The notes under the pieces were generated by a model, which saw nothing but the letters and a program-made list of their open reading frames with translations, had not been told where the DNA came from and made no database searches. A program made the position numbers and the translations under genes. A DNA stretch of 64,000 bases from Nemertoderma westbladi (lineage: Eukaryota; Animalia; Xenacoelomorpha): positions 62,001 to 126,000 of the forward strand of contig JAUCBJ010007860.1 of assembly GCA_032718475.1 (NCBI GenBank), given 5' to 3'. Below are positions 39,601 through 61,463 of this stretch, in pieces. Each line of letters starts with the position of its first letter. Position 1 is the stretch's first letter.

Positions 39601-42088
39601 ATAATCAAAGTTTTTAAACTTTAACTCACAATGTCCATCCAATTAACCGGTATTAAAATTGCATGGTAAGGTTTAATGACTGTAAAAAACCTTACCGGTA
39701 GGTGTGTTAGTACCAAAGTATGTATAAAACTAAAAATCAACAAAACCTAGACGTTGCATACAATCTGTGATCAGCTGACGGCAGCCAGCTGATCGGCAGG
39801 TTTCGCCCCGCAGTTGAAGGCATTCTCAGGAGGCCAAGTCAGGAAACGTAGAGAGAAATTCACAAAGTGATACGGATACCACATTTTTTGAAACCAGCAT
39901 GTTCATTTTCATAATATTTTTCGACCACTTTTTGTATTTTCATTTTCTATTTCTGATAATTGGAAAATATATAAAAAATATTAAAAAAGTGGGGAAATAT
40001 ATAAAAAATAATAAAAAAGTGGGGAAATATTATGAAATCATAAAACTGGTCGAAATTTATGAAGCTTATGAAATTACCTTTCATATAAATCAAAAATTGC
40101 AAAAAACGGTTGAGAAATGGCGGAGGAGTAGTATTTTTCGATGAAGTTAAAATGAAGAGAATAAGTTGAAATGAAGAGAGAAGTCTGTAACCACTGCCAC
40201 TGCCACTGCCACTGGTAAGCAGCACCAATCACGTTTTTGGTTGCTGATAACGGGCTTGCATGTTTGAATGTAATACATTTCCAGCTATTACAAGTTATTC
40301 CAGCTTATCTGGATTGTGCAATTGCTTTGAAATGTTTAAACAATTCACGCCAGTCAGTCAGCCAACGTGTATTGGGCACGCCGCGGTGCGTCATGATGTG
40401 GTTGTGCACAGTCTTACCCTGTTAGCTCCAATTTTTTTCATTGGTCTGAAACATAATATCTGTGAATACATTTTTCTGCTGTAGGGTAAGGGATCCATTT
40501 ACGTTTGGGCCAGCGGTAATGGCGGTATCTCTGATGACGACTGCAACGCAGACGGTTACGTATCCAGCCCATACACGGTTTCTGTTGGGTCAGTGACATG
40601 GACTGGTGAAGCTGCCTACTACGATGAACGGTGTGCCTCCACCATGGCTGTCGCTTATACTGGTTGGTAGTATTTTACGGTCGATAATTGATTGTTTTAA
40701 TGTCTTAATTCTTGCACTTAGAAATTAGAAATTAGAAATAGACAGGCCTTATAAATTTGAATTTAAAATTATGTTCTAAAATTTTAAAATTTTTAATTAT
40801 TTTTTAAATTTTTAAAATTATTATCCCGTTAGGCAGTGAACACGAAAAGGAAGATTTTGAAGGTAAACTGACGCCAGATCATAAACTAGTTACCACTGAT
40901 CTCAACCATAGATGTGTGAAACATTTCCGAGGAACGAGTTCTGCGGCCCCATTGGCCGCCGGAATATTCGCCTTGGTTTTGGAGGCCAATCCCGAACTGA
41001 CATGGCGCGACCTTCAGCATATAATTGCCAGGGGCAGCCACATCCCCAACCCGCAGGAGGACGGCTGGTATGTAAATGGCGGTGGGCGCCATCTTAACCG
41101 CGGATTTGGATTTGGGGTACTCAATGCCGGGAAGATGGTTGAACTGGCCTTGTCATGGAAACCAGTAGGCCGTCGACATGTCTGTAAGATAAGGTACAGC
41201 GGAGGTGCGATTAAGTTTGGTCCGGGTTCACAATCGATCAACCTCATTACGACCGGATGTCGGAAGCTACCCAGTCGGATCTCCAACCTGGAGCACGTGC
41301 AGACTGTAGTCTCGTTCCAACACCAGCGCAGAGGTTCTGTATCCATCACACTCACCTCCCCCCAAGGAACCACATCCCAGATGTTATCGAGGCGGAGGCT
41401 GGATGACTCTGCCGAACGAGTCGATAGTTTCCCCTTCATGACGATCCATCACTGGGACGAGAATCCCGTGGGTGTGTGGAAGTTGTTGCTCTCAGGCGGG
41501 AAGGGGGGCGGAACCCTGTACAACTACACCCTAGTGCTATCCGGAACATCGTCGGATCCGGAGAGCGAATCCCGGGACACTCCCGAATCGATTTACCAGA
41601 TGTACGAGGACGAGATTGGCGAACCGAAGAACGTCGAGTTCAAGGGGGTCGTGGTCGATCCCGGCACTTTGGCTGACCCCGTTGAGATGCAGAGTAAGGC
41701 TGTCAACAGAAAGGTTGAAGGTTCGTTTAAATCTCAGAAAGAGTCAGAGTTAAAGTCTCGGAAAGAGAAGGAATCTCGTAAAGACGCTGAGTTGAAATCT
41801 TTGGGTAATCTGGATTATCAGAAACAGAGAGAGGCGGAGTTGGATTCTAGTAAAGTGGTTGTAGAATTGGAATCTAAAAAAGAGGCAGAGATGAAATCTC
41901 GGATAGCGTTGGAATCCAAAAAGGAGACGGATTTGGAATCCCAGGAAAAGGGCAAAGGATATCGGCAACGACGATTATTTCGAGATACAAATAAATTATC
42001 GAATGTTAAATTGCGTCATTTAAAAGCCAATAGGTGGGCATTAACTCCACGACAAGTGATGGATATACAAAGATTATTGAATAAATAA
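15249..42088 (+). CDS. Subtilisin/kexin-type proprotein convertase (S8B; furin/PC1-like), 5 coding exons, ~789 aa
   Basis: Exons 15249-15673, 16613-16842, 35509-35789, 40485-40662 and 40833-42088 join with GT-AG boundaries in phases 2,1,0,1, giving 2370 nt. Catalytic Asp (VDDG), His (HGTKCAG), oxyanion Asn (SGNGG) and Ser (GTSSAAP) are present, followed by a P domain. Confidence 0.92.
16613..16842 (+). CDS. Convertase exon 2 (catalytic Asp)
   Basis: aag|G TAC TTA..., encoding [40 protein letters not shown]; donor G|GTTGGT. Confidence 0.9.
17165..17806 (-). mobile_element. Degenerate RTE-like LINE RT fragment, split by the BEL element (continues at 29205-~29255)
   Basis: The minus strand reads ..[43 protein letters not shown] across the BEL insertion site; (TAG)n-type tail near 17165-17185. 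Confidence 0.75.
17807..18347 (+). repeat. 5' LTR of element 1
   Basis: TGTGACC...GGGGAATA, direct repeat of 28664-29204; TATA-like TATAAG at 18095. Confidence 0.93.
18662..21046 (+). CDS. N-terminal gag region of element 1 (low complexity/coiled coil), separated from the rest by a G15 run
   Basis: Contains the BEL-like LPSDSVSQV motif and a coiled-coil stretch. Removing one G from the run at 21029-21043 fuses it in frame to the next ORF. Confidence 0.8.
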   Translation: MSTGIPGETRRGTASTVGPEHSSHLDGTPTGSADSQFEGWSDSSHADQPGSQGAIGGDPQPEVCSDSAVLPESVNVPDTNQTSTVPGRVGSAVNSRTGPVLPTTTGQHPVRPRTPSPDGGSPQHSDSDDRRAPAGATAGAATVEDAVVRLQPRGARSDTRTGSPVKPARARRLTRSTIEKGTLPSRDTGEVEKLAQKYRRARDRMEDGVKTGTLNFNIDEAVEQVNLYIEHLNKYQQEVASDQITDHITNFLTVLYITHKLVGIYRVGKVVVGEAATAVAKNWDSVPLGGEMREAEAELLPSDSVSQVESNRGTFISSQVRSNYMSVASSRGVREEELHAQFLIEQRELEGELLEQELEKARRVRAHRLAKNRKQQLEARQQKRLVSLRAASENGSSVSRPTQVSQSVSVPCGLAQVATARKQTNNRVELNKPIEFNNLNLLNKQTQLVDIDQTAGRRPTYLVQQQAVQTSARLPATQGLVQGVSEGDSIRLMSRDTDNCINLNGNLNNNLTPNIDLLQYNANSNKNANIIAPIIIQSNVEAPVLSNNIDSDSHQPTHNTDDIAVPPSGSRLYCGNQIASREESDREERLRDSGDRTSVRVSSKVEEVYYEGCPGARTGQLTQSGESERATRAQEDRSSDELVDPLCRLGQPATVGYQSVDQQEQATVVPDIDKQTTLNPNASDYRPPRVPEGGRLNLSDVRHADSTANVPVPRVPLWRPRDDNVYYNSNIREYLPVTASPSYNPTSSGTYTQRGSNETIHSPVGLHYDTLPRLSYPSRETDKPAYNNVGGGGG
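20964..26438 (+). CDS. BEL/Pao gag-pol (capsid-like region, Zn knuckles, protease, RT, RNase H, integrase), with a premature TGA at 26343-26345
   Basis: [61 protein letters not shown]. The frame continues past the TGA ([18 protein letters not shown]) to TAA at 26438. Confidence 0.93.
26572..26967 (+). other. Array of ~15 short stem-loops (consensus RTCYAY-TCC-RTRGAY) in the 3' non-coding region of element 1
   Basis: Examples: gtctac-tcc-gtagac, gtctat-tca-atagac, gatctat-tcc-atagatc, atccac-tcc-gtggat, ggattac-tcc-gtagtct; spacing about 22-35 nt. Confidence 0.8.
28655..28663 (+). other. Polypurine tract of element 1
   Basis: AGGGGGGAG immediately before the TG of the 3' LTR. Confidence 0.85.
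28664..29204 (+). repeat. 3' LTR of element 1
   Basis: Direct repeat of 17807-18347, followed by TSD AATTC. Confidence 0.93.
31757..33180. mobile_element. Non-autonomous piggyBac-like DNA transposon (1.4 kb)
   Basis: TTAA at 31753-31756 and 33181-33184; imperfect TIRs CCCTATTA...TAATAGGG; internal subrepeats (GTGCTAGCACCA). Removing it restores the LINE sequence seen at 39021-39040. Confidence 0.85.
33199..33500 (-). mobile_element. Penelope-like element terminal (pLTR) fragment or retrozyme-like insert with inverted arms
   Basis: Flanked by a near-duplicated target (TCGATTATTTAT / TCGATTAATTAT); ~45-bp inverted arms at 33247-33290 and 33457-33501; contains a minimal hammerhead. Confidence 0.6.
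33306..33351 (-). ncRNA. Minimal type I hammerhead ribozyme
   Basis: Minus strand: AGCACUA-CUGAAGA-GGCCU UAU AGGCC-GAAAC-GUAC-GUA^UAGCGCU. Full CUGANGA/GAAA/GUH core, perfect stem II, stem I 6/7 paired, palindromic stem III (ACGUACGU). Confidence 0.85.
34190..34935 (-). mobile_element. Degenerate RTE-like LINE fragment (APE C-terminus/linker)
   Basis: The minus strand reads [38 protein letters not shown] with stops and frameshifts. Confidence 0.7.
35509..35789 (+). CDS. Convertase exon 3 (catalytic His)
   Basis: cag|GT GAC AAC AGC CAT GGA, encoding [38 protein letters not shown]; donor GTTAGT. Confidence 0.92.
36410..36462 (+). other. Possible degenerate tRNA-derived SINE head
   Basis: A-box-like TGGTCCAGGTGG and B-box-like TTCGAATCC, with no complete cloverleaf. 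Confidence 0.3.
36568..37331. mobile_element. ~760-bp foldback/MITE (long imperfect palindrome)
   Basis: The left arm TTTCTACAAATC..GCTTGAAATTTGAAACACAACTAGTTCC..CCCCATGAAG is mirrored by the reverse complement at 37253-37331; symmetry continues toward a centre near 36950. Confidence 0.8.
37710..39520 (+). mobile_element. 5'-truncated RTE-like LINE (RT ORF 37767-38936, then a frameshifted C-terminus)
   Basis: [46 protein letters not shown]; same family and 3' end as 29261-33996. Confidence 0.9.
39875..40142 (+). repeat. ~270-bp dispersed AT-rich repeat, copy A
   Basis: Near-identical inverted copy at 42620-42637 plus 61464-61715; internal ~33-bp tandem units. Confidence 0.85.
40485..40662 (+). 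CDS. Convertase exon 4 (oxyanion Asn); absent from the ORF track
   Basis: tag|GGT AAG GGA TCC, encoding [46 protein letters not shown]; donor GTTGGT. Confidence 0.92.
40833..42088 (+). CDS. Convertase exon 5 (catalytic Ser, P domain, charged tail)
   Basis: [31 protein letters not shown] domain [26 protein letters not shown]; stop at 42086-42088. Confidence 0.93.
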
Positions 42089-42637
42089 TATTAAAAATTT
42101 TAATTATTGTATTCTTCCTGATTCAACAACTTTCTCGATATTGGTTCAGTTTGGCCGTAATCACAGGAAATACAAACCAACTGAACCATACATGTACGTT
42201 TCCGGACCGTATGAAAACAGAATAAATCTGAACTTTCTGAACAATTAAGGAAAAAAGAAATTAAATTCCCCTCCCTCGGAAGAAATTTCATATAAACTAT
42301 TAAATGTCAAAATTTCAAATCTGAAAACCGCTTAGAGAGATCTCTTTTAGTTCTCTAGTTATCGTGGAATATGTCTGTCAAAATGTAAGACAGACAAACA
42401 ACCGACCGACGTAGGCCTACAGACTAGATTCCACTAAATGTTAAAACTGACATCGGAAAAGAAATCAGCGACCCCGAAAACCCATTAAATATAATTTTAG
42501 CTCGGTGGTGTGCTTTCTTCCTGTCAGACAAATTAACCAACCAGACCCCATGCGTTAGTTTTGACTTTGAGCGAGCAGGATTGAACATTTAAGGCAATTA
42601 TCTCTGTATGACATTCTTTCAATCGAAAAATACTACT

Positions 42638-43895
42638 TGTTCGCGCTTTTGAAGACCTTTAGCAGTTTAACCTGCCAAAATTTATATGTCTTTTAGTTAA
42701 TTAAAACCACTTTAGCATATGACAATATTTTATGCTAATACGCAAAACATTAGCCGAAGGCAGCCCATGCGCGATCATTCACCCGATGGATCTACACCCG
42801 GGAGGCTGAATTCGGATGCTTAAATTGTATTATTGCAGTGTAAGGTTGCAGTGTATACCTACTGTATTATTCGATAGATCGTTAATAATTAATCTCTGAC
42901 ATATATTATTGGCTTTCGGGAAATATTAACAGTTCCTTTAGGACGTGGCGCTTTATCTATTTAAACAGAACTAAGACTTATACTAAAACGCAACGATACT
43001 GCTTATGATTAAAGTATAAAGCGTATTCTTTAGGAAATACTTTGTTACCAATCACAATCATACACACTATTCTGCCGACCGTCAGTATATTTGATCATAC
43101 ATAAAGAGAGCAGCAATTGACTCACGTAGGGTCTGCTAAATAACATTGGATTCAATACACACCACATTAATATAAATCGCAATTGTTATGTATAGCCGGT
43201 CTCTCTAACCTGTAGTGTTATCAAGAAAATTGGGAATTTGGGTGATTTATCCGTATTATCCAAAGAGCAATATTTCCATCAACAAATAGGTACAATTAAT
43301 AACTGACAGTAAATAACAGTACAAACAATATGATTAATGCAGTTAAATTAAGTAAGTATGTTAAGATGCGTTAAAATTCGATTGATTAATTAGATTCGAT
43401 TCGGTAACAGTTTATACTTTCGATAATTTAAGCAGTTTTACTAGAGTTCTTCCCAAAAGGCCGGTGTTTCTGGCTTAGACAGCAATAACAACAAAGTATC
43501 AAGTAAAAACAGTAAGACTGAACACTCTCCTTATGATCGGCTGAAAAGCTACACGTCGACAGGAAAAATCGCTCTGATTGGCTCAAGCCAAACAAAGAAC
43601 CATGCGTCCAATGGCTGTTTCCATGTCAGCAACCAGCTGTTAGATGTCGTAATATGAATCATCACGGCTAAGCTGTGAAAGGTAGTTGGTGCATTACAGG
43701 TTTTTTGCCTTACCATGTCCGCCAAAACACGTATATAGCAGAATGATTTTTATGTCCGTTAAAACACCTGTAAAGGTACCTTGCGGGCGAGGGGAATATA
43801 TATACAGTTAGAGAACCCTTTTAGAGTATTCCAGCGCCTGGGGGGAACTGGCCAGCAAAGGCAAACGTATCAGTTATCCCACAAAAGCTTTTACA
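42638..43895 (-). repeat. 3' LTR of element 2
   Basis: Direct repeat of 60201-61458. Confidence 0.95.
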
Positions 43896-43973
43896 CCGCT
43901 CCCAGAAAATGGGATTTAAGTCTATAAAATATACAAAATCACAGTTTCTAAAATATAAAAATACTCTAAACAG

Positions 43974-46900
43974 TTAGTCTTTCTTGCGCGGACGGCGTTT
44001 ACGCAGTTTTTTAAAGCTAGCAAGAGTCCTTTTCTCTTTGGGGCGAGCCACTTTACGAGGAGGGCTATAACTCCTGGGTGAAGGGTGCAATATGATTGCA
44101 TCAGAAGGTATGGGATTGCGATCGGTATATCCGCCGGTCGAAGTACCGGGTTGATTGACCTCAACGTCCGGGGAGAGGGGTCTAACGGCTTTGAGAGCTC
44201 GTTTCAAGACAGCCGCTCTTACGGGTCCTGTACGAGTGGTCTGCACGAGGGCCGTGGGTGGACCATAGGTAGTTAGAAACTTCCTTGGTTTAATGGTTCT
44301 TTCCAACTCGCGTTCGCGGGCTCGGTACTCGTAAGGCCGTCGATATACTTCTTGTAACTCAGGGTGTGAGTTGACGAATAAGTCTCCATAGGCAGGGTCT
44401 TGACGGATAAAGTTTATTAAGTTGTAAGAATGGATGTCACTCGGATTAATGCTCCTGAGGAATTTGCGTACATATTTGGTTGAAATACATTCTCCAACGC
44501 GCTTCAATAGTTCATAACTTGATAGGCGCGATTTTTGCTCGACGGAGGCAAACAAATATGGATGGAACGCATAAACTCCTTCGTAGGCGCGTCCAGGATA
44601 ATAGCGATGGCGTGAATCACAATGTAAATCAGCGTTCGCTTCCCAAGCTCTGATATAACGTAGTACAATCATCTCATCTACGCTCTCTAAATCATGGTTG
44701 AAGGGACAATCAAAGCTGGCGTGTCCTTTTAATTGACAATGATGGCATTGAGTCATAAATTTGGGGCAGACCCCAAAAATGTGCAAATTATTAAGCCGAC
44801 AATATGCACAATAGATTTCCATCGACGGTTGCTTGTGGAAATAGGAACAAAGATCGTTGGTGTCCATAGACGTAATATGGTCTCTCGATGCGCACAGCCG
44901 ACAACGTTGTCTAGAAACATAATTGGCATGGCGATAATCATACGCAGTAAGACACTGGGGACCTTGATACCATTCCAATATGTAGTCGCTATCGCTACTC
45001 CGAGACGTGGGGGGTTGAATCTCTTCAGATTCTAAACATATGGGTTCGTCTTCCCCTTGTATAGTTGAGGTAGGCATGGCCGTCTCCTCAAGTGGACCTA
45101 CCGTCTGAATTTCCACGACAGAATAACCGGTGGGGATCCGAGGTCTTTGAATAACCGAGGAGTGCAGGTTTATTATACAAATGTCTCTGAAAATAGCGAA
45201 TCCAGCGCTATCTAACTTCTCCGCAGCCGAGTCTCTTAAGCTGAGCTTGGTCAAAGCGCGGTCTTTGAATTGGCTATCCACGTTGCGAAACGGGGTTAAA
45301 AACCGTCGGAAACATTCAAAGCGGATGAATTTATTATGTTCATCTAGCTTAGCGAGTTTGGTCCCAAGGATTAATGGATGGGCGCGTATAGTACGACTGC
45401 ACACATCGGCTAGCCAACCGGAAAGTGCGGTGTTTTCGAAGATCGTGTAGATAGCTAAGGAGGGACGGAGTGGAACACTCATGAAGCTATACACGGCGCC
45501 AGGTGCGGTCAACGGTCCGTCAAAGTATAATCGAGAATAATGGTCTCCATATACTTGTTGATAATTGATGGGATTTCCGACCTTGAAATTCCACCCGTAT
45601 TCCTGAAAGGCGAGATGTCCGATGGAAGTTCGTTGCACCTTTGTAATGTTGCTAGACACATTAGCATACATGGTGCGAAAGACCTCGGCCTTCGGCCCAA
45701 GGAGCTATCAGCTGAGTATCCACGAAAGGATAGGGGATATTCTCCATATTCCGAAAGTCGTTTTGGAGATCTCCGTAAACAGCTGAGCCGATTTTAACGA
45801 TTCTTTCGTTGAATAACATCTCGAGAACGGGCTGGGGTAACATCGATCCATCGATACCCATGGCCGGTTTGCGTTCGGTGTCAATGACGTAACGCTGCGC
45901 GAGTTCGAATTGTCTATGTCGGAGATTCTTTTGCGTTTCGGTGAGAGTTTCGAAGGAATAATCGATCACGTCGGAACACGCTCGCGTAAACACGTGAGTG
46001 GAGCCAGCTAATCCGCGTATGTGTATCATGCGCGTAGTTCCTAATTCTCCGATTGGAACGCTACCTTCGTTATCATAAGTAACAACGCCATACATCTCAA
46101 TGATATTAAGAGTTTCATTCCACTCTTTGGTGGCGTTCTCGAGGGTCATCCCTACTGGATGCCACAAGGTGGCGCATTGATTAGCGTCAGGGAGATCACT
46201 ATACTTCATATATCGAGTGGTATACGTCTCCACATTTCCATATCTTTGGATTTTCTCCTCCTCGAATAATACGTCTAGATTTCAATGGACTAATCGAGTT
46301 TTAATAAATCCATCGAGGTTATAAGGAGGTTCTGTATCCTTCTCTATTCGAGAAACGTTGTATGGTTTTCGAAATGAGTTTGCCTTTACTAATTGATCCA
46401 GATGTTTTTGCAATTGTTCGAGTTCGACAATGTCTAGAGGATTTATTAGTGGTAGAAACTTTAAATCATGCGTCGGATCTTCTGGTTTTACCATATAATA
46501 TTGAGTCAGATTAACGTAATAAGGGTGATCTTTAATTCCATAAAAAGAGTTCTGTAAAGGTCTAGCGCGTATGTTGACATCGTGTACCATACGACGGACA
46601 AGATCCGCTCGATTGTCCGGAGGTTCAACGAGTATACCGTCAACTCGAGCGGCCTCGATTGGCGGACGCTGTAACATAGGAGCGTCAGCGATAAGATTTT
46701 GCGATCTTATGCTGATATCAACCGGTTGGGGTTGTATCTTTGCGAAAAGTTTGTCTCCGAAATGCGGAACCATCGAGGGATGACGGACGGTTTTAGAGTA
46801 GAGATCGGTTATGAGTATCTGAGTTTCGGGTTGGGCTAAAGCGGCTTCTTCTCTCTCATCCATTTCCGTATGTCTCTCCTCCATTTGATTCTCCTCCGCC

Positions 46901-48225
46901 TGTTTCTGTAAGCGTTCTTCCAGAAACTCCTGTAGAGAATACGTACGTCCAAGCTCGATGTCCTCTTCGAGGTTTTGGATTTCTCTATCAAACTGCGGCA
47001 AGGCTAGCTCTTTCACCGATTGGACCTGCTGCTGTAATTTACGTTTCTCTAGAAAATCCTGGGTTCCCTTTCCGATTTTCTGTCGGATGGCGTCAAGAGC
47101 GTTTCTGATGACACTCTCCTCGACTTCCGTGGCAGGTTGTATCGGAGTTAATCCTGGCCGGTTGTAAGGATTAAATGGCGATGTTAGATGTCCGCGTCCC
47201 AATCCGGTCAAATAGGATGGTCGAATATCCAACGAACCTACCTCAGGAACACCACCGATTAACTGCTCGGGCAACACCAAATCCTTGAACAGTGAGTATA
47301 ACTCGGGAGGATCAGTGAGACTGTTAGGATCAAGAGTTTGAGGTCTCACGGGGAAATGGGGAGGTCTGACCGAGTATTCCGGAACTCTGATCATGGGTTT
47401 ATTTAGCGATCGTTTTAGACGGGCGATCGTAGGTGATACATCGAACAGGTTTCGCTCGAAACTCCCGTAAGTATAACGCGTGAAACTGTGTTTAGCACAA
47501 CGTCTCCGCGGATGTTTATGTCTTTCCGTTTGCTGGTTAGGTCTAGGACATGAGTCACAATAATACCAAAGACGTACGTCCTGCAGAGGAAACGCGGGTG
47601 ATCGTTCACCAGTTTTGCAATACTCTTCCATTTGTTCAAAACTGTCCGGGACAACAGGCAGTGGACGATCTGCGGTAAGATACATCATGGTGAAATAGAG
47701 TCGTTTGAGTTCTACCATGGGATCGTGATGTATACCTTGAGGATATCGAGTCTCTAGGTTCTGTTGACTGGCAATATTGAGATAGGTTTCCCGCAAAAAT
47801 TCCACGTAGTCGTTGAAGTTGATACGCTTATCGGGTTCTTCAACGTTTTCTCTGTCGAGTAGGTGGCGAATAGAGTTCTCGTGTTCTATTCTCGGTTTAT
47901 CATTACGATTCCGCTGAGAATGATATTTAAATAAAACCATTTCCCTTTCAGTGTCTACATCATCGGTATCATGTAAATCGGTGGGATGGCCGGTAGTTAA
48001 GAAGTCCATATACGTACCATTGCGATTCGTATAGCGAGCGGTGAATTTTCTATAGTCCGCTTCACGCGTAAGTTGTTCCTGGGACATCGGCGGTTTGATG
48101 TAACGACCGTCGTCCTCCGTAATAGTCGGATCGGCTTCACCGCGTATCAAGCTATCCACAAACGCTTGTAAAGGTAGAGTATATCGCTCTCTAATACCAA
48201 GGTCATCTTCTATCAATTCCGTCAT
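43974..48225 (-). pseudogene. Cargo gene of element 2 (~1,400 codons): CxxC region, coiled coil, DEDD-like 3'-5' exonuclease and CCHC-like knuckles; one in-frame TGA and one frameshift
   Basis: The 647-aa and 190-aa ORFs share a frame, separated only by TGA at 46284-46282. The 190-aa and 565-aa ORFs overlap by a 1-nt shift near 45680. Exonuclease-like motifs: VVTYDNEG, LPQPVLEMLFNERIVKIGSAVYGD, FVDTQ, SIGHLAFQEYG, PLRPSLAIYTIFE. Confidence 0.7.
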
Positions 48226-49844
48226 ATCTGCTATCTGAGTTTGTTAATATCAATATAAATTAGTATTTTAGGCAAGCGGGCGTCGCTGCCTATTAGGCTT
48301 TTTGCCCCCGGACAGTGGGTTTCTCAGCGCCGATGTACCGTTGTCGCAGTGTTTACGCCAACATGTAGCAACAGCACGACAACGATAACCGGCACAAGTC
48401 CCACCACTGTCCGTCCCAAAGGCTTGAATCCACTTGAGGTTATCTCGGTAGAGTTAGGGCTATTTTACAATTGCGATTAGCTACTGTAAACACACTTTAG
48501 TAGTAACATTCACCTATAAACGCACAAGTTCCATACAATCATTACTTACTGCACACATGCATGCCATTTGTCCGTTAGTCAGTGTCTTCCAGAATGTCAC
48601 GTTATTACTATGTATCCTTGGATACTAATAGTGCGCTATGTATACTCTTATGCTACGCAATGGGACAAGCTTTTATTGTTCCTTTAACTTGCTTCTAATT
48701 CTAGCGTGGGTGTTGCCATGGTGACATTATGGAAAACTAGCGGTAGAATTAGGGCAATTCTCATGTATACAGATCTGGGATGTTATTTAATAGTAATTCT
48801 TTAATTGTCAATATCCTCTTTATGCATGATTTTATAAATTTTATCGGCTATTGACTATATGTTGGAGATTCTCGCACTCTAATACACTCAATTTGAATCT
48901 CCGCTCCCATGATCTATTAATTACTGGAATTTTGGGAATGTTATAAATTGTACAAAATGACAATTTATGAAATTCATTTGAATATGAATTTAAATTTATT
49001 CCCGTGAATTTTATTATTTGATATTAAATTGACATAAATTTTATTCCAGAGCATATCTGGGGACTCAGGATCCTTAATTCTGTAAAATAGTCCTTCTAAG
49101 AATATCGGTAAATACTGCGATATCTTAATTGACTAGAAATTTTAAAGGATCGGGATTTTACAGATTTTAACAAATATTAAATTAATATTTAGGATGGGCA
49201 CCAATTTATTCCAGAACTTGTCTGGGGACGTTAACCACTGATTCTAGAATTTGTCTTTCAAGTATATCGGTGGGTGCCACGATATCTTAATCGACTAGAA
49301 TTACAGATGGTCAAAAGTTTAACAGATTTATTTGCGATTGACGCTACTGTTAGAGGGACATCACGCTACTATATGTATTATTTGTTATAAGGTAGAAGAG
49401 CAATATCGCACGAAGCAATGTCAGTGTGAAGAGGCAAGTCGTTTCCAAGGTCTACCCAGAGCCTGGTTTAGCCGAGACACGAGGATCTGAACTTTGCATT
49501 CCTAATACTCTGCCTACCAATAATACTTAAATATAGTAGTGGCTTTATTGTACTTTAAGAAGTACGGACATGTCATCTTACTATAGTCTCGTATTTATAA
49601 TATAATACGGACAGTAAGGAAAGAGAAAATAATTACTTCTTGCCGTCGCACTAAATATATATTATAAGTAATTATGTACGTAATAAACACTAATATATTG
49701 CACTAATCTACTAAACATTCTAAAATAACATTTTACTAAATAAAATCAAATAAAAACGATTATAATAAAGTACATAATAGAGTTCGCATATAAAATGTAA
49801 TAAAATCGATAAATTAATATAGTCATACACCCACTCCAGACGTA

Positions 49845-52800
49845 TCACGTTTGGGAGTCCCTAGATGTTTGAGGTATTAGGGAGGTGGTCGTGGGAAGAG
49901 TGTCTTGTCTTCCATAGTTTCCGGAGAGTTCTCTGTCTCTTTCCAGCAAACATAAACGACCAACTGGGCGATTGAGTTGTTGCGTCTCAAAGATTATTCC
50001 GGGTTTCTTGAAGTTACGCCTCATTACGACGAGTTCTACTGAGCGCACTAGACCATCCTCCGAGATGTGCGTCTCGATGATACGACCGATCTGCCACCGT
50101 CTACGTGGGAGGTCCGGATCTACAATAAGGACCATGTCTCCGGCGCTGACATTTTCCTGCTGCGCAAACCACTTAGTTCGAAGTTGTAGCGTGGGCAGAT
50201 AATGTTTCTCAAAATGGTCAGCGAAACGACGGGATAGCAACTGCATAAGCTGCCAAGTTCGACGACAGTATTCATCTCCATCGGCAATCTCGGATTGTGG
50301 GAGCATGGCTACAGGTTTCTTAAGTAGGAAATGCGCGGGTGTTAGCGCTTCCAGGGAGTCGACACTCGATGAGACTGGCATAAGCGGTCTCTCGTTAAGA
50401 TAGGCAGCGATTTCTTCCATTAACGTCCGTAGAAGTTCGTCGGTGAGATATGCGCGGCACGGCACTATAAAGTGAAATGCGGTCTTGACACTTCGAATTA
50501 ATCTCTCCCAACTTCCTCCCCACCAAGGGGCGTCGGCGGCGTTAAAGGTCCAGCTAGACGCCGTTATCCGTAGCTGGTCATCCACCTGTCTTTGATTCCA
50601 GTCCTTTACGTAAGCCTGGATTTCGTTGTTGGCACCAATGAAGTTCGTTCCCTTGTCGGATCTCATCGTATTGCTAGTGCCGAAACGAGCGATCTGTCGT
50701 CGTAGACATAAGACGAAGCTGTTAGTAGATAGATCGTTCACCATATCGAGATGGATAGCTCTACAAGTCATGCAGACAAAGATTACACACCATCTCTTGA
50801 TTATAGTTCTAGCACGATATACTTCAATAGGGCCAAATAAATCCACACCAGTATTAGTAAAGGGTGGTTCATAAAAGCTTACTCGTTCCCTAGGTAATTC
50901 TGCCTCTCGCTGTGTTAAAGGCCTACTGAATACTTTCCTACAAGGTATGCAGTTCCTAAGAACTTGATTCAGAGCTCTACGTGGTTTATGAAAATAATAG
51001 CGGGTTCGAATCTCGCTAAGAACTCGTTCTCTACCAGCATGATACAGTTTACTGTGAACATCTACAATCATCTTGATTTGTACTTCAAGATTACTAATGA
51101 GTATAGGGAATTTAGTATCAAAAGATAATGGAGCGTTGGTAAGTCTTCCTCCAACGCGTATTAACCCATCTATCATTGTGCTAGAGAAGCGATCCCTTAA
51201 GCGCATCTGCGGATTTCTTAATAGCAGAAAATACCTATCGGAATCTTCATAGCATTGCAATAGTCTCAGTAGCTGCTTATTAGTTTCTTCATGCTCCTGG
51301 TAGCTGATCTTCTCCTTTAGAAACCGGTCTGATATCTTGTACTTAGGTAGATCTTTAATAACATGAACTTGCGCAGATGTTACCGGAGCAGGATCACTAG
51401 TGGTCTTCTTCCTGGAGTAATGATGGTGAAAACATCTCTTTAAGTATGTGACAGCTTTACAGAGACGATTCCAGGAACTGTAATGATGCAGTGCTCTCTG
51501 CAGCAGGGGTGAGATTCCTTGCGAGACGTCTGGTATCTCAGATTTCCAATTTCTATCTCTAATTTCCACAACAGATTTGTTTGTGGCGAGGGATTGTGGA
51601 TCCGAAGTATCGTTCTTGGCAGTATGTAATACAGATAGATCGATTGTCGGTTTAAATAACTTCGATTTACTTGTCCGAATTTTGGGTTTGACTTTCTCCG
51701 CTCCCTTGGCTTGTCTAATCTCAGCCGTAGTAAGGTGAGGAGGCCATTCATCCTCTTCCTTGCTTAAGAAGTCGGGTCCACCCAACCAGTCAGGGGTATC
51801 TATCAGTTCCTGTGGAGTTGCTCCTCTGGAGGCGATGTCAGCTGGGTTAATCGTACCAGGGCAATGTCTCCATTGATCTATCGTTGTGCGACTAAGAATA
51901 ATGGCCACTCTGTTAGTAACAAAGACGCTGAACTGACAGACTTCATTCGTTATATATTCCAATACAAGTAAAGCGTCGGTCCAATAAACGGTTTTCTCCA
52001 GTGGATAATCGATCTGTTCTGTTACATTCCGTCCGATAGCGGTAGCGTATAATGCTGCCTTTAACTCCGCTCGAGGAACCTTAAGCTTGTTGTTAATCAA
52101 TGCCTTAGAGGTAACCAAGGTAACTTTGATTCCATCCGGAGTTTCGACTCGCAGATATGCTATGATACCGATCCCCATATCGCTGGCATCTCCAAATACA
52201 TGGAGTTGATAGGAATACGTAGGGAGAACATGACCAAAATATGAACGGGAAATTATAAAGTTCTCGATGGCAGGTAGCGAATCCTCCCATTTCATCCATT
52301 TCTTTAATAGTTCTCCCTTGAGTGGATCGTCCCACGAGTGGTTTTCTAGCCACATTTGTTGTACTAAACTCCGAGCAATCAATATAACTGGGCTAATAAA
52401 TCCCAAGGGATCGAAATAAGTGCTCAGAATACTTAAACAAATCCGTTTGGTCCGAACTGGATTATCTCGCTGTTTTAACTGAAAAAACAGGATGTCCCGT
52501 TCTGTGTCCCATTTCAAGCCAAGCGTCTTGGTTTCCGGAAGATCATCATGTATTAAGTCGAGATCTTTTGATCCCCGGTCTTCTACAGATATTGCTTCCA
52601 GAAACTCACGGGAGTTGCTGGTGAACTTCGTCAACCGAAATCCACCTCTTTTCAAACACTCAACCGTTCCTTTCGCGACATCAATGGCTTCCTTTACTGA
52701 TGGAAGGGACTTTAAATTGTCGTCCATGTATATGTCTCGTTTGATGTTATCTATCACCTCTTTGGAGAAGGCATCCCGGTTGTCATCCGCAGTGGTACGG

Positions 52801-55800
52801 ACCACTGAACAGGCGTTTGAAGGGCTTGATATAATCCCAAAAGCCTGGATGGTCATCCAGTACTCTACCGGTGTCTGGTTGAGATCTCCTTCAGGCCACC
52901 ACAGGAATCTTAGGCTGTCTCTATCACGATCCAACGCCTTGACTTGTAGGAACATTCCTTCTATATCGGAGGCGAACGCGATGGAATATTGTCTTAATCT
53001 CAACAGTATCCCCAACAAAGATTGGAGCAAGTTGGGTCCTGGTAACAACTCGGAATTAAGGGATTGGCCCATATATAGAGCGGAGCCATCAAATACAACC
53101 CGTACTTCATGGGGTTTACCGGGTTTGGGAACATAATGATGTGTTAGATAATAAGTCCTTTCAGTTATTGGAGTTCCTTCCGGTACTCGCTCCGCATATC
53201 CCTTTGTGATAAATTTCTTCAACTGAGTCTGGTACATTTCCTTAGCTGAAGCGTTCGCCGTCAGACGTCGATGTAATTGATTGATTCTTTTCTCAGCCAA
53301 GGGTCTGTTATTTATAAATCTGGGTTCACGTTTTCGGAAGGGTAGTCCGATTTCATATCTACCTTGATCTTTTAAAAAACGTGTGGTTGTTTCCTGGATT
53401 TGCTTGGCTCTTTCTTCTTCTATCGACAGGGCTTTGTCGTATGAATTGGGTTCTACCAATTCTTGGGTAAAGAATCGTACGGCGAGTTCGTCCCGAGTTC
53501 TAGCGTTGTAGCGCTCTACCTCGTCATTAAGTTCGTCATTATAAATAGTGGATTCCGTTGGGCGAATCAATTGACATAGGTTCGTTTGGTTTTTCCAAGT
53601 TTGGTTTTCAGTAAGTAGGTCAATTGTGTTCTCTTCTTCGAAGAGTTGGTAGATGTCGTCATTATCTGAGGAGTATGGGGTTCCCTCAGTTGGTTCGTCC
53701 ACTTCGCTGTTTTCCTCTTCCCAATCACTTACCTGATCTATTTGTTCGTGTGGCATTCTCTCTTCTAAAGTTCTACGGGAAGGGCCAGTAAAGTACCAAC
53801 CTACTCTAGTTCTTACCGCATAAGTTTGCAGTGGCTGTGGTTGAGCAGGCCGTTTCTCTAATGTTTCTAGCGCCTCGTGCGCGTTTTGGCCGATAAGTAT
53901 TTGCACTCCAGGATAATCTGTCTGGAATCGAGGTATCTTAAGGTGTTGGACGCTCTCATCTTCGTCCCAATCATAAAGGTCTGCTTGAGTAGTAGCAAAG
54001 TTCTTTATAGCCACCATTTTTACTGACCTTACACCTTGTGTTCCTAACTTATCCTGGGGGGTGGACAACACACCTACATAGTAATCTGCCGTCAGGGTAG
54101 ATTTCCAAACCTGCATAATTCCTGACATATTCAATTTAGTCCGGAACTTGGGTTGTCCAGCAAAGATATCTTCGGCTAGCTCTTGATCGATGAATGTTCC
54201 TGTGCTGCCTGAGTCAAGTAGGGCGTTCACTATGTAGCTTTTGTTAATACCATGAACTCTTACCTGAACTACAGGAAATTCTCTGATTCCTACATTGGAA
54301 GTTGGAGCTTTCCAAGATGATTGTTTGGTAAAAGTAGTAGGGGGAAACTCCTCGTTGATGTCCTTTTCGTAAGTAAGTGCTCGATACACTGTGGTGTTTA
54401 TTAAATAACAGGATTCGTTGACGTCGGAGAATTCGTCAGTATAAAATCCTTCCATCTCAGACTCCTGATCAGTGTCGTTTACATCACTGAATTGGACATG
54501 TAGTTCGGACTCACTTACCTGACTCGGCTTGTCTCGTTCGAACTCACTATGTAACAAGATGTGATGTTTCGCACCACACTTTTCACACTTTATGTCGGAG
54601 TAACAGGTTCGCCGTTGGTGTCCTGGTCTGAGGCAATTATAGCATAACCGCTTGTCCCACACAACTGTACGTCTGTCTACAAGGGATTTCTTTAGAAATT
54701 CCGCACACGCACTCAAACGGTGGGTCCCGTCGCACAGCGCACAGTTAGGTTTTATGTTACTTACTTTACCTTGGGTAGTCTGATGCACTCTCGTTCTTTC
54801 TTCGGGCTTTCTTCCGCGCATTCTGCTAGGAGACTGAGGAGGGGTCTTAGTAACCTGTTCTCTCCTATTGTTGGTTCGAGCTTTGTATTTACTTACGTCC
54901 TTAGAGGTCTTGTCAATATAATAAGATCGTTCGGTGTCTTTCCCGCTGTCTTCGTCTTGGGAAGCTTGGCTTTCGCCGTCGTCAGTGTAACACACCGGTG
55001 TTACTCTCCTCCTAGAAGTAGGTTTCTCACTTACCTTATTTTCCGATGTTTTCTCTCTGGACTGCTTGATGAGTTGTAATTTGACTTCACCATCTAAGAA
55101 AGACATGAGATCAGCCATGGTAGGACTTCGTCGTTGTTGTTCATTCATGTACAACACTTTCTTGTCCCAGCGTGTACATACTCCACCCTTTGGTAAAGTA
55201 GAGACTACGGCTCCAATAACCATGGAACTCTGGTATTCGTGCGACTTACCTAACCAGTCCAGTTGTCTACAGATCTCTTGAATTTCATCGGAAAACTCTA
55301 TAATCCCACTGCTAAGGAAGTGTCGGGGGGCTACTAATTTTGCATACAAATACTTAGCTATGTTATCCTTGTTACCATACCTGATGTTTAATGTATCCCA
55401 AACTTGTCTTAATCCATCTGGATGTCCAATAAACTTTAACGCCATTAACTTGGGAGGTCCTTCCAAACACTTGATGAGGAATCTAAGTTTCTCTCCGTTA
55501 GATAGTACAGAGTTCTGTATACTATCTTTGTAATATTCGTTGAAAGGTAACCATTTCATCTCATCTCCATTGAATTTGACGATCTCTCCCACTTTGACCG
55601 CTTGGCGGGCTTCTGTTCTAGCCATCTGACGCGTAAAGCTTTCTTGGGCCATCGCGTTATTTAATATCGAATTATCGGTATACAAATTTCTCGGATCATT
55701 ATCAGGTCTATAGGGAATATCATTAATAACAGGTCTATAATCACCCTTAATAGGGTTTGCTATAGGAGTTTCAACTTCACTAGCAGTATAGATGCGTGTA

Positions 55801-58022
55801 GGCTCCACACCTTGCGCATGTAATACTTCAGACCTAACGGGTTGACACAGTGTTACAGGGGGCATTGGTATGCCTTTTTGTATATTGACTAATTTGTCGC
55901 GTTCTAGCGCGATGCTTTGCTGCACTTCTTGCAACTCTGCTCTACCTTCCCTCACTGTTCCCTTAAGTTGGTGGACAGTCTCCTGCATCTGTCCCAGCAG
56001 GAGATTCATCCCCCGCCGTCCCTCTTCCACCCACTCAACCGCCGAAGCGGGAGTCGCCAACATAGTAGCGGGCTGACGCGGGACGACGGGAGACAAATTA
56101 TTGATTTCTCTCTCCGCTATCTGGACAGGGGTATTTGCAGGGACTGTTCCACCGGGTACAGGCAGTGTAGTGCTATGTAAAGGGAATTTAGAGTTAAGCT
56201 CTGGAAGTGTAGGGGTCTCTAGCACAGAAGTGACTTTGGGAACTACAGGCCTAATTATTTCAGGTTCATCGACTATAGTAGGGAGTCTTTTGACCTGGAT
56301 AAATTGTTCCATGGGTTCTGCACTACCTAAATCTGTGCTAGTTAGCTGTCTTTTAACAGCTGGGGGCAAATCAGGCAATTTGCGACGGTAATATGTTTTT
56401 CTTCGTCTACTTAGATGGGATCTATTTCCTCCGCCTTCAGGGTCGGTAGTATCGCCTTCCTCCGAGGATGTGTACCCCTGGCGCTTGGGAGTAGATTTTC
56501 TCATCATCTGCATTTGATTAGCAGTAAACTGTTTATTTATACTGTCTTGTGTCTCTTGCAGATTCTCCAACTCCAGTTGAGCAGTCTGCTCAAATGCTCT
56601 CCTTTCTGCTTCTGCGACTGCCTTTGCCACCGCCTTTGCTGCTTTTCTTTCTGCTTCTGCATCTGCCTTTGCCACCGCCTTTGCTGCTTTTCTTTCTGCT
56701 TCTGCATCTGCAGCCGCTGCCTTTCTTTCTGCTTCTGCATCTGCCTTTGCCACCGCCTTTGCTGCTTTACTTTCTGCTTCTGCATCTGCTATAGCCGCCG
56801 CCATAGCCGCCGTTTTTTGTTCATCTATCCTTCTTTTCTTTATTTGTTCTTCTCGGACTCTAGTGAGGCGGAGTTTTTCATCACATTCAGCTTGGTTTGC
56901 AGCTAACATTTCGGCATCGATTGAGTCCAACACAAGCTTGGTTCCTTCACTATTAGGGGAAAGTCCAGACAGCCGTCTCCTCAACTCTTCGTCTCCTAGG
57001 AATCGCTGATAGTCGGACAAATAAATGTCGATAGCGTCTCTAGTTCGCGGTTTCTCGGCGGCCTCTTCGCTTTCCGCTTGAGCAAGGGTGACATCAGTTG
57101 GTTCGGTGACATCAGTTGGTTCGGTGACATCAGTTGGTTCTTCATAGGTTGATCTCTCAGCCAGCTGGGATTTCCACTGGGCTGTTTCCTGTACTTTGAG
57201 ATCTACCCGATGTAGCCAAGTTTTGACAGCAACCTGCAGCGACGTGTCCTGTCTTCTTTTGGAAGTTTCCTCAAAGGCTGAGAGGATTAGTCGAATGCGT
57301 AGGGTTCTTTCGCGTACTTGGTATAGCAGCTCTTCCTACTCTTGAGGTCCGTGAGGTTGTCGAAACAGTTGTTCTTCCAATCGCTCCAAGGATCCGAAGA
57401 ATCCCTGCACATATCCTGCTGCCGACCTCTTCCAAACAGCTGGATCCATTGTATCTTTAGCCACTCCCATCCTGTGTATATCTTCCCAAGTAGCCTCGGA
57501 CATATCCAACGGAAGTCCGAGTCCGGGAATGTTCCATTGTGATTCAACAATAGATATCAATTCTTCCCTGGCGTATCCCGCGTAATTATCTTGGGTCGCT
57601 CACTTATTCTTCGCCCAGTCGGCTTGATGTTCCTCCACCGCAATGAATATAGTAGTTAGCACTGCAGCAGGAAGAGTAAGAAGGGGGTCCGAGTAGACTG
57701 TATCAGACATCTGCACTCCATGTTCGGGAGTCAGCTCTACAGTATCCGAACTGCTGGAGCTATCGGGTCGCTGTGAAGTAGGTTCTTGACCAAGATGTTG
57801 CTGCGATAGGACAACTGCCTCCTGGTCCCGTTTTACCTGTGCCCGAGTGCCTATGATGGACCTATGGTGGACTAGCCTAGGGTCTGATACTACTGGAGGG
57901 ATGACCTTTTTTACAGTAGGAGGTGAGCCGAACTCCTTTCTTATTCGCTCCACACTCCTATCTGAATCACAAATAGTTGTATCGATCAGACTGTCTGACA
58001 GGTTTTGCTGAGTGTCAGACAT
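49845..58022 (-). CDS. BEL/Pao gag-pol of element 2 (~2,725 codons; two in-frame stops in the N-terminal part)
   Basis: Single frame from ATG 58022, with TGA at 57602-57600 and TAG at 57338-57336. Three BEL Zn knuckles (CALC.., CYNC.., CEKC..HH), LLDSGS, YMDD, FGDAS, HHCC, GVDLFGP, SDKGTNF, WERLI. Confidence 0.93.
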
Positions 58023-59379
58023 GTTTAGTTATACAGTTGAATGTCTACTACTATAGTTTCAGTTAAAGCAAGTCTGGTAATTCAGTATGACCGCAAGCCT
58101 AGCGATTTATTACCGGTACCGTTACTCGGTGTAACGTGATATATACACAATATATTAGAATACCGGTATGCTTATAATATATAAGTATTATTACAGACTA
58201 GATTTGTCACAGAGTACCGGTATATAATTTTAGCACAAATATATATATATATAGTAGGCCTATAATGAATACCGGTATACAGCTTACACTTACAGCATGT
58301 AAGTATAATTATGAACTAGAATTAATTACAGAGTACCGGTATGATTTCAGCTCAAATTTATAGAGATAAATATAATAAGCCTATAGTGAGTACCGGTATG
58401 TCAATTATTTTAGAATAATTGAATCTCTGAATATTTTAGGGCTACTTGGTTACTTTAACTTACTTTGTTACCGTTATTTAAGCAGTAGTCCAACTGATAG
58501 TGAGACCTAGTTGTTGTATGGCAGGCCTACTATTTATAAATCGTTTGAGTTGATTTATAATATTTATATACCCGTTATATGGGTTTTTGTCAATATTTGA
58601 AATAAATGTTATTATTTCTGGGGGAGTCACTACACAGAAGCTGAACGCCTCTCAGTGAAGTACTATTTATTTGACACTAAAACTGATAATTCTAATTTAC
58701 CTAAGTTACTTAATACTACAAATTACTTACGATACGGGTGAGATCAATTCTCTAATTAAACACAACAAAATATTACGTACGAAATTTTTAGGGTAATTTT
58801 ACAGGAAGTCTACAAACCAGTCCAACAAAGGGTTAGATTTCTGGTTATTACAAAGGACAGGGTACTACGGTATTTAAATAATAAGTAGTAGTAAATATAT
58901 TGTACTGTCCAGATAGGAAAATACCACCGCCTGACGACCTATAACCGTATCGCTATAGGTACTACGTTATGTATCCCGGATTGTTCCTACCCAGAAGCTA
59001 ATAGAGCTAACGAATGTGCCTATCAACCACTTTACAACACAAATATACTGCCTACACTAATTACTTCGGAAAGCACTGTACACTAAACCCTAAATTAGGT
59101 ACAAGTACCGGTATAACAAATAATCAGTAGTTAAATATACTTGAACAGTTAAAAGAACCACGGCATCTGCTGGAGTGACCGAAGCACAAAGTCGTCAGTC
59201 TTTACCTACGCCAAGCAGCCCTGATGTAGTACCGGGGTTAGTTTAACTATAACGGTATGTGTAACAAACACAATTACTGTAGGAATAAACTTGGGGACAT
59301 GAATGTTGCGAATAATCGCATAAACTCTGAATAATAAATATTACGCTACCCGTACAGAATACTCAAACAAATACAAACC

Positions 59380-59900
59380 AAAACGCTGGCAGACTACTAT
59401 CAAGCCTAAACAAACTACAGTATGTGCAGATTCTGAAACTGTTAGTTAGTATGCGTTCTAACACGGTAGTACGACTTACTCTTTAAGAGGGGATTGACCT
59501 TACCGCTTATGGCTGCCCCAACTTACTAACGGCACTTTATCAGACCAACTCTACACACGCAGCAATCCCTTCAGGCCTAAGAATAGCTAGACAACAATCC
59601 AGCCTACCAATATTTGAGTAATAACTATTACGGTACCTGAACAGACCACACAAACAAGCACAGGCTAAAACACTGGCAGACTACGATCAAGCCTAGATAA
59701 ACTACAGTATATGCAGACTCTGAAACTGTTAGTTAGTATGCGTTCTAACACGGTAGTACGACTTATTCTTTAAGAGGGGATTGACCTTACCGCATATGGC
59801 TGCCCCAACTTACTAACGGCACTTTATCAGACAAACTCTACACACGCCGTAATCTCTCCAAACTCAACAACAGTCAGACAGCAGCTCAGCCTACAATTAT
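59380..59900. repeat. ~287-bp tandem duplication in the 5' leader of element 2
   Basis: Two copies starting near 59380 and 59667, with a well-conserved ~190-bp core. Confidence 0.85.
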
Positions 59901-60200
59901 CTGAACAATCTGAGCAGGGTCACACGCCTTCTGCTCAATATTAGCCTACTAGTAAATAAAACCGACAGAAATAAGTAGGATCTCAAATAAAAATCAGGGC
60001 GGCCGTTCCCCGATTAAGTACCAAGACCTACCGGTATACAACAATCAAAATCGAATAATACTAATGTACTTGTACAGCAGTACCGGTACCGGTGATGACA
60101 GTTAGGCCTACTGACCTACAGAAGCACCGGTTCAGTTTTACCAGTCACTACGGTATTTTGCAACCTTATTGCTTACTGCAATAAGATTATAAACTGTTAC

Positions 60201-61458
60201 TGTTCGCGCTTTTGAAGACCTTTAGCAGTTTAACCTGCCAAAATTTATATGTCTTTTAGTTAATTAAAACCACTTTAGCATATGACAATATTTTATGCTA
60301 ATACGCAAAACATTAGCCGAAGGCAGCCCATGCGCGATCATTCACCCGATGGATCTACACCCGGGAGGCTGAATTCGGATGCTTAAATTGTATTATTGCA
60401 GTGTAAGGTTGCAGTGTATACCTACTGTATTATTCGATAGATCGTTAATAATTAATCTCTGACAGATATTATTGGCTTTCGGGAAATATTAACAGTTCCT
60501 TTAGGACGTGGCGCTTTATCTATTTAAACAGAACTAAGACTTATACTAAAACGCAACGATACTGCTTATGATTAAAGTATAAAGCATATTCTTTAGGAAA
60601 TACTTTGTTACCAATCACAATCATACACACTATTCTGCCGACCGTCAGTATATTTGATCATACATAAAGAGAGCAGCAATTGACTCACGTAGGGTCTGCT
60701 AAATAACATTGGATTCAATACACACCACATTAATATAAATCGCAATTGTTATGTATAGCCGGTCTCTCTAACCTGTAGTGTTATCAAGAAAATTGGGAAT
60801 TTGGGTGATTTATCCGTATTATCCAAAGAGCAATATTTCCATCAACAAATAGGTACAATTAATAACTGACAGTAAATAACAGTACAAACAATATGATTAA
60901 TGCAGTTAAATTAAGTAAGTATGTTAAGATGCGTTAAAATTCGATTGATTAATTAGATTCGATTCGGTAACAGTTTATACTTTCGATAATTTAAGCAGTT
61001 TTACTAGAGTTCTTCCCAAAAGGCCGGTGTTTCTGGCTTAGACAGCAATAACAACAAAGTATCAAGTAAAAACAGTAAGACTGAACACTCTCCTTATGAT
61101 CGGCTGAAAAGCTACACGTCGACAGGAAAAATCGCTCTGATTGGCTCAAGCCAAACAAAGAACCATGCGTCCAATGGCTGTTTCCATGTCAGCAACCAGC
61201 TGTTAGATGTCGTAATATGAATCATCACGGCTAAGCTGTGAAAGGTAGTTGGTGCATTACAGGTTTTTTGCCTTACCATGTCCGCCAAAACACGTATATA
61301 GCAGAATGATTTTTATGTCCGTTAAAACACCTGTAAAGGTACCTTGCGGGCGAGGGGAATATATATACAGTTAGAGAACCCTTTTAGAGTATTCCAGCGC
61401 CTGGGGGGAACTGGCCAGCAAAGGCAAACGTATCAGTTATCCCACAAAAGCTTTTACA
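60201..61458 (-). repeat. 5' LTR of element 2
   Basis: Direct repeat of 42638-43895; sense-strand CCAAT-like (near 61140) and TCAGT Inr-like (near 61083) motifs. Confidence 0.95.
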
Positions 61459-61463
61459 CTACT

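Follow-up and report, generated by a model that had tools for sequence, protein, structure and literature searches.

Which protein occupies the env slot of a BEL/Pao long terminal repeat (LTR) retrotransposon in Nemertoderma westbladi (Xenacoelomorpha), and what might it do for the element? The window analyzed here, a 64,000-nucleotide stretch of contig JAUCBJ010007860.1 (assembly GCA_032718475.1, positions 62,001 to 126,000 of the forward strand), carries a full-length element of this kind. An initial annotation, made from the letters and their open reading frames (ORFs), had joined three ORFs of the element into one gene for a DEDD/DnaQ-like 3'-5' exonuclease with zinc knuckles in place of env. 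Our results showed that these ORFs form a single cargo gene (ORF3), that its product very probably contains a DEDDy (PF01612) fold of the WRN/EXD type, and that the nuclease region is under purifying selection among the copies of the family.

One gene in the env slot

The cargo gene starts 1.6 kb past pol and stops 79 bp short of the 3' LTR, which is the position of env. Its frames 1 and 2 are in register across a single TGA (46282-46284), and frame 3 overlaps frame 2 at 45661-45704 in a different frame. Copies were compared via the contigs of four public sequencing runs placed on the element. At the TGA, the entire mapped depth differed from the window in 4/4 runs (45, 25, 5, and 4 contigs), and a small insertion or deletion (indel) was found in the overlap of frames 2 and 3 in 6, 1, 1, and 2 contigs (59%, 42%, 100%, and 100% of the local depth). 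Because other copies differed at both places, the stop and the frameshift appeared to be peculiar to this copy and not features of the family, and the annotated single gene of about 1,400 codons held, at about 1,416. The frameshift indel may alternatively be an assembly error. Programmed read-through, programmed frameshifting, and short introns at the two breaks are therefore not needed and were rejected, as was an alternative genetic code, since more than one kind of stop codon occurs internally. In each of runs X1 and X5, a single contig lacked most of the nuclease region, one joining 45055 to 47867 (2,811 bases skipped) and the other 44132 to 46484 (2,351 bases skipped), which hints at deletion derivatives. 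A splice-acceptor-like CTAAT...CAG lies directly before the cargo ATG.

The N-terminal 647 residues had no match in Pfam, NCBIfam, PDB sequences, or the Atlas. In the C-terminal part, the annotated knuckles were found as three Cys/His clusters, the last of which is a canonical CCHC knuckle, and Pfam zf-CCHC_3 matched the cargo with E=0.0075 and 16.6 bits, under its cut-off of 27. The basic tail was also present (44012-43977), and its composition makes a nuclear-localization or RNA-binding segment possible. In agreement with the annotation, the cargo was not an envelope, because no segment was hydrophobic enough for a membrane helix. The three pieces had maximum 19-residue hydropathies (KD19) of 0.93, 0.73, and 1.34, and the scan showed no transmembrane helix, no signal-like stretch, and an acidic N-terminus. 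An unrecognized envelope or fusion protein with nuclease motifs arising by chance, for which the env-slot position alone speaks, is scarcely credible in view of these values and of a motif order far above that of shuffled sequences.

Identification of the predicted nuclease domain

The DEDD/DnaQ-like fold named in the initial annotation was supported by Atlas features, a weak NCBIfam signal, a family hidden Markov model (HMM), and the order of the motifs. With Atlas language-model features, the four matches listed for the 206-residue piece were all PF01612 clusters (0.90-0.92; best three 0.91-0.92), and 10/10 of the best matches having a family agreed on PF01612. The top cluster, 97% eukaryotic and mostly rotifer, scored 0.92 with 156/256 features in common, under the 170 typical of close family members. 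Among 18,950 NCBIfam models, the sole two matches were RNase D, both weak (E=0.0038 and 0.011). An HMM built from 38 non-redundant bacterial DEDDy domains out of 114 collected scored 14.1 bits on the cargo versus a maximum of 9.8 in 1,000 shuffles, and ranked the cargo ORF first over the 523 ORFs of the window.

A chain of eight ordered motif blocks derived from 63 domains reached 55.4 bits versus 12.9 ± 6.2 (maximum 34.4) in 300 shuffles, with 0/300 reaching the cargo score, and at most 23.5 bits in 17 windows of the other proteins of the element. Most of this signal was contributed by ExoII (25.3 bits, rank 1 of 419 for its block) and the FVD strand (13.6 bits); the ExoI block alone scored just 1.6 bits, yet fell in order. 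All the motifs quoted in the annotation were found in their places, with ExoI and ExoII before the frameshift and SIGHLA and PL..AIYTIFE after it. The D-x-E of ExoI closes the first core strand, and the ExoII Asp follows the K-x-G/H strand, in a column that is invariant in all alignments.

The ExoII stretch had been read as WRN/EXD-type, and this was borne out by the K-I-G strand before the ExoII Asp, in which G was found in 31/31 WRN-like bacterial rows and was not among the common residues of 11 RNase D rows. The group HMMs agreed, with 10.7 bits for the WRN-like group versus -0.7 bits for the RNase D group, and the K-I-G strand is as in the printed PDB alignments of WRN and EXD2, such alignments being the sole means by which eukaryotic members were compared.

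A structure prediction, suggested in the initial annotation, gave a partial model when an alignment guided it. This alignment of 44 bacterial domains, ending before ExoIII, was the sole one of six tool alignments with both ExoI acids in register and was selected for that reason. The guided model consisted of strands at residues 33-43, 49-57, 63-70, 129-132, and 153-155 and a helical insertion at 82-96, with a mean predicted local distance difference test (pLDDT) score of 58.8 and values of 70-93 over residues 11-40 and 111-160, the strand/helix core. Its top structural matches were nearly all DEDD nucleases (RNase D, EXD2, WRN, Nibbler, EXD1, RRP6, and Egalitarian), and viral 3'-5' exonucleases also appeared; the best neighbor was EXD2 (6k17, Z 9.4, root-mean-square deviation 3.5, 116 aligned). 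Since the alignment supplied the fold, these matches are partly circular, and the model indicates compatibility with the DEDD fold and not independent proof of it.

Several results weighed against the assignment. A check against PF01612, also suggested in the annotation, failed, with no Pfam match at E<=10, so that the domain lies below the Pfam cut-off. For the 206-residue piece, a search of 1.84 billion representatives yielded no homolog at E<=0.001, and two word-based searches found no relative of the cargo. The WRN-like HMM alone exceeded the best shuffle by a thin margin (10.7 versus 9.8 bits). Single-sequence AlphaFold prediction failed (pLDDT 30), and the guided fold left ExoIII unplaced, with pLDDT <50 for residues 198-267. 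In ExoIII, position +4 is occupied by Glu in one register and by Ser in the other, and in neither by the Asp of the family Y-x3-D pattern. In addition, searches of PDB sequences gave chance-level rows only, and metagenome and viral contigs and phage records gave no match to the cargo. The absence of the ExoIII Asp lowers the case for a canonical DEDDy member and not that for a DEDDy-derived fold, and we regard the DEDDy fold of the WRN/EXD type as very probable.

The ExoIII motif and possible catalysis

ExoIII had been annotated as a Yxxx[D>E] motif. The Tyr/Glu register was indeed present, but a second register with Ser lies 14 codons upstream, and the assignment is thus ambiguous. Both registers read aromatic-x3-PL-x6-Y. 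Automated alignments chose the upstream register, which places two Pro residues within the expected long helix, where Pro occurs in 3/42 family members only. The downstream register has no Pro over 22 residues and an acid, Glu, at its end. This helix geometry modestly favored the downstream register, and we lean slightly toward a catalytic domain that would use the Asp and Glu of ExoI, the Asp of ExoII, and the downstream Glu of ExoIII.

With the upstream register, in which Ser takes the place of Asp and the IY helix pattern matches after a 2-residue gap, the protein would instead be a dead or crippled nuclease fold that serves as an RNA-binding adaptor, similar to EXD1 or Egalitarian. Together with the helical stretch, knuckles, and tail, such a fold would bind the RNA of the element and either protect it or direct it, for example toward particles or germ cells. 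EXD1 (5fiq, Z 7.0) and Egalitarian (9rvy, Z 6.4) were among the neighbors of the guided model, tied with many active enzymes, and inactive DEDD derivatives exist in the biology of PIWI-interacting RNAs (piRNAs) (PMC5408684). The three canonical acids are retained in the cargo, the adaptor reading needs the two Pro residues in one long helix, and the Pro-free alternative ends in an acid; an adaptor of this kind thus seems unlikely, though it deserves serious attention.

Purifying selection among copies

A comparison of copies had been suggested in the annotation, and it revealed constraint on the nuclease region. The analysis used the 40 best-supported of 128 copy differences over 45560-46400, and omission of the row at the stop left 39. 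Among these, 28 were synonymous versus 10.9 expected under the same transition/transversion mix (omega about 0.15; binomial P 1.5e-8, an optimistic value because the rows are haplotype-linked and were picked by support). Over 45706-46180, 24 of the 27 listed differences were synonymous. Among the 11 cargo rows listed in another comparison of the contigs, mostly private to this copy, five were silent and six were not. The nuclease region was therefore under purifying selection among copies, and this claim is confined to that region.

If the cargo had been captured from the host or a foreign source and were now decaying as a passenger of no benefit, this would fit the two breaks in this copy and the contigs that skip most of the nuclease region. 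Such neutral cargo is very improbable, as the silent excess over 45706-46180 is strong, other copies do not share the breaks, and gag is also broken in this copy.

The host element and its putative self-primer

The element has LTRs with TG...CA ends, a short target-site duplication, and a single gag-pol with the Pao-type domain order, as expected for BEL/Pao. Pfam matches on gag-pol followed the order DUF1759, a weak Asp protease, Peptidase_A17, Integrase_H2C2, and DUF5641, which is the type protease, reverse transcriptase, RNase H, and integrase (PR-RT-RH-IN); the accessions matched on pol were PF05380, PF18701, PF03564, and PF17921. The two LTRs are 99.8% identical (2 differing sites); the element is young and its family has many copies. 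Scans for related loci with the integrase and reverse transcriptase pieces gave no usable locus.

The LTRs differ at just two sites, yet the copy in the window is interrupted by three stops and one frameshift and also bears several substitutions that are nearly private to it. Other copies differed at the gag stop at 57600-57602, and the stop at 57336-57338 was absent among the 40 difference rows listed. It may descend from a template that was broken before, the proteins for its copying having come from other members of the family. The 2.2-kb leader (58028-60187) is non-coding, unusually long, and contains a 287-bp tandem duplication, and the 1.6-kb spacer between pol and cargo (48244-49844) is likewise non-coding and unusually long. 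The insertion site is one copy of a short repeat (42622-42637 / 61459-61715), and the other copy lies 2.5 kb off at 39875-40142, inverted, with 258/258 bases complementary.

The primer-binding site (PBS) was found to match the LTR of the element itself. The complement starts at the first base past the 5' LTR, with three extra pairs to the U5 end. A 13-nt complement was reached in 0/3,000 Markov LTRs, and the PBS was the only one among 16,265 internal anchors to reach it. In the folded leader, the PBS-LTR pairs had probabilities of 0.85-1.0. The LTR segment begins with a TATA-like hexamer and is also readable as a TATA box. From its sequence, the element appears to carry a Tf1-type self-priming signature, with a PBS matching its own LTR and not of tRNA type.

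This signature bears on a role of the cargo as an exonuclease for the replication of the element, which would trim 3' ends of RNA or cDNA and possibly expose the 3'-OH of the 13-nt self-primer. The missing tRNA-type PBS and a complement far beyond chance are in keeping with such a role; against it, Tf1-type self-priming requires only a cut by the element's own RNase H. The cleavage site in Tf1-type self-priming has been described (PMC4600332), and 3'-end processing was proposed for ORFs such as the cargo (PMC5408684, PMC6431247) and for Dada DNA transposons (PMC3706591). We consider an exonuclease dedicated to the element's own replication unlikely, though a close rival of the host-directed role proposed below. 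Its most specific form, in which the 3'-5' exonuclease trims the element RNA to the 13-nt LTR segment and so makes the reverse transcription primer of a tRNA-free element, is improbable; if true, primer trimming would be the first defined job for an env-slot nuclease.

Proposed function

We tentatively propose, with a confidence somewhat short of even, that this BEL/Pao family carries a third gene under purifying selection whose product, with its predicted WRN/EXD-type DEDDy domain, knuckles, and basic tail, acts on RNA and helps the element to escape host small-RNA silencing. The cargo would be translated from a separate transcript, probably spliced or internally started. RNA binding would fall to the knuckles and the basic tail, and 3'-end shortening to the DEDDy domain. 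The target is the least certain step: the protein may shorten or remove the 3' termini of silencing RNAs, or of the single-stranded RNAs from which these derive, and the element would thereby evade silencing by host small RNAs. To our knowledge, silencing suppressors encoded by animal retrotransposons are poorly known.

A host-directed role was preferred because cargo of this type is found repeatedly in retroelements that replicate in different ways: DEDDy cargo is common to rotifer LTR elements and Penelope-like Terminons (PMC5408684, PMC6431247). This recurrence argues for an advantage over the host and less for help with any single copying step. ORF3s are typically expressed from spliced messages (PMC5408684), and the DEDDy enzyme Nibbler shortens the 3' ends of piRNAs (10.1101/2020.07.08.193029). 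A tie to the small-RNA biology of Nibbler/mut-7/EXD1 is plausible. The proposal is weakened by the rotifer DEDDy ORF3s, which did not clearly track copy number (PMC5408684).

Table 1. Coordinates of the BEL/Pao element, its cargo gene, and the motifs of the cargo protein in the 64-kb window.
Feature	Position	Strand	Remarks
BEL/Pao LTR retrotransposon, full-length, 18.8 kb	42638-61458	minus	LTRs, TG...CA ends, target-site duplication, pol Pfam domains
Target-site duplication CTACT, 5 bp	42633-42637 and 61459-61463		flanks the BEL/Pao element
5' LTR, 1,258 bp	60201-61458	minus	2 mismatches to 3' LTR
LTR segment complementary to PBS, candidate self-primer	60967-60979; 3' LTR copy 43404-43416	minus	
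Primer-binding-site position	60188-60200	minus	exact 13-nt complement of LTR positions 480-492; no tRNA-type TGG start
gag-pol, single frame	49845-58022	minus	Pfam domains on pol
Two in-frame stops in gag, 5' part	57600-57602, 57336-57338	minus	
Cargo gene (ORF3, env slot), about 1,416 codons	43974-48225	minus	first ATG 48225 to final stop
Cargo frame 1, 653 residues	46282-48243	minus	
Cargo frame 2, 206 residues	45661-46281	minus	
Cargo frame 3, 576 residues	43974-45704	minus	
N-terminal 647 residues, no family	46285-48225	minus	acidic start, Pro-rich middle, charged helix-former-rich at about residues 350-470 (composition)
Predicted DEDDy 3'-5' exonuclease domain, WRN/EXD type	45381-46182	minus	about 40 inserted residues follow strand 3
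ExoI VVTYDNEG (Asp, Glu)	46063-46086	minus	motif chain, alignment, strand in guided model
ExoII helix-strand LP..VLEML..KIG....D and FVD strand	45712-45840	minus	best-ranked motif blocks; KIGSAVYGD 45795-45769, FVDTQ 45726-45712
SIGHLA	45626-45609	minus	
ExoIII region, two PL-x6-Y registers	45435-45515	minus	upstream Y-x3-Ser 45515-45477; downstream Y-x3-Glu 45473-45435 (PL..AIYTIFE)
Three Cys/His clusters	44706-44903	minus	C-x2-C-x4-H-x9-C; C-x2-C-x5-H-x4-C; canonical knuckle C-x2-C-x4-H-x4-C
Basic C-terminal tail	43977-44036	minus	11 K/R among final 20 residues (composition)
3' LTR, 1,258 bp	42638-43895	minus	short purine-rich tract just before

Other features of the window

A second young BEL/Pao element lies on the plus strand at 17807-29206, with LTRs of about 540 bp that differ by three mismatches. 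Its gag and pol are in two overlapping frames, and its pol is 30% identical to that of the first element. Its PBS is not TGG-type, and the 9-nt complement between PBS and LTR is at chance level. No long ORF was found in its 2.3-kb 3' region, and no DEDDy match was found there by tblastn or HMM; with neither such a match nor a PBS complement above chance, this element was rejected as a relative that shares the cargo.

The plus strand at 15219-42088 carries exons of a furin/PCSK-type proprotein convertase (pro-domain, S8, and P-domain). The second BEL/Pao element and fragments of long interspersed nuclear elements (LINEs) sit between these exons, and the first element lies 550 bp past the last exon seen. 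An intron-free 479-residue HD-domain ORF (PF01966) at 11334-12773 presumably resembles SAMHD1-type deoxynucleoside triphosphatases (dNTPases), a family that restricts retroelements. Positions 1-11300 consist of a satellite with about 357 copies of a 31-bp unit.

Comparison with known systems

A 2017 study described ORF3s for DEDDy exonucleases in LTR retrotransposons (PMC5408684), and DEDDy cargo in the env slot is therefore known. The ORF3 of the bdelloid rotifer elements Juno and Vesta, common with Athena/Terminon, is likewise a DEDDy 3'-5' exonuclease that lies downstream of pol, replaces env, and has no transmembrane helix (PMC5408684). There, the acidic tetrad is altered to DEED and the function is given as unknown; the tetrad of the cargo is also altered, to D-E-D-(E or S). 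The present cargo differs in its BEL/Pao host, the words BEL and Pao having 0 whole-word occurrences in the main text of PMC5408684, and in its size of about 1,416 residues, with a 650-residue N-terminus of no family and three knuckles. Rotifer env and GDSL ORF3s looked neutral in a test that did not include the DEDDy ORFs (PMC5408684), whereas the cargo showed purifying selection, which adds to the rotifer study a constraint on the nuclease region among copies. The Atlas feature match to a mostly rotifer cluster may hint at kinship of the cargo with the rotifer proteins.

Among cellular proteins, WRN, EXD2, EXD1, Nibbler (mut-7), and Egalitarian (PF01612) likewise contain the ExoI D-x-E strand, the stretch LP..l.elL....i.KiG....D, the FvD strand, the S-x-x-x-L helix, and PL-x6-Y. 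The cargo is about 10-20% identical to them and differs in the roughly 40 residues inserted past strand 3, in having no canonical YAAxD, and in its location inside a retrotransposon; no single cellular ortholog was assigned. Dada DNA transposons also encode a DEDDy domain, but theirs lies within the DDE transposase and keeps all four acids, unlike the cargo (PMC3706591). As for priming, the Tf1, Tj1, and sushi elements likewise have a PBS complementary to their own LTR and not of tRNA type (PMC4600332, PMC6317226); they are Ty3/gypsy elements, whereas the present element is BEL/Pao, with a 13-nt pairing and a complement that opens with a TATA-like hexamer.

The literature searched, outside subscription journals and Repbase reports, contained neither a DEDD cargo in BEL/Pao nor self-priming of a BEL/Pao element. 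The present case is set apart from the known DEDDy cargo by its host, a BEL/Pao element, by the very large size and several domains of the protein, by its WRN/EXD type, by the purifying selection seen among copies, and by the self-primer that occurs alongside. Env-slot nuclease cargo was thus extended from Ty3/gypsy-like and Penelope-like elements to a third retroelement lineage, BEL/Pao. That RNA-trimming folds have been captured more than once suggests that retrotransposons follow a general strategy, directed against small-RNA defense or at the handling of the element's own RNA, and this strategy can be tested in a family that is young, has many copies, and encodes a separable domain.

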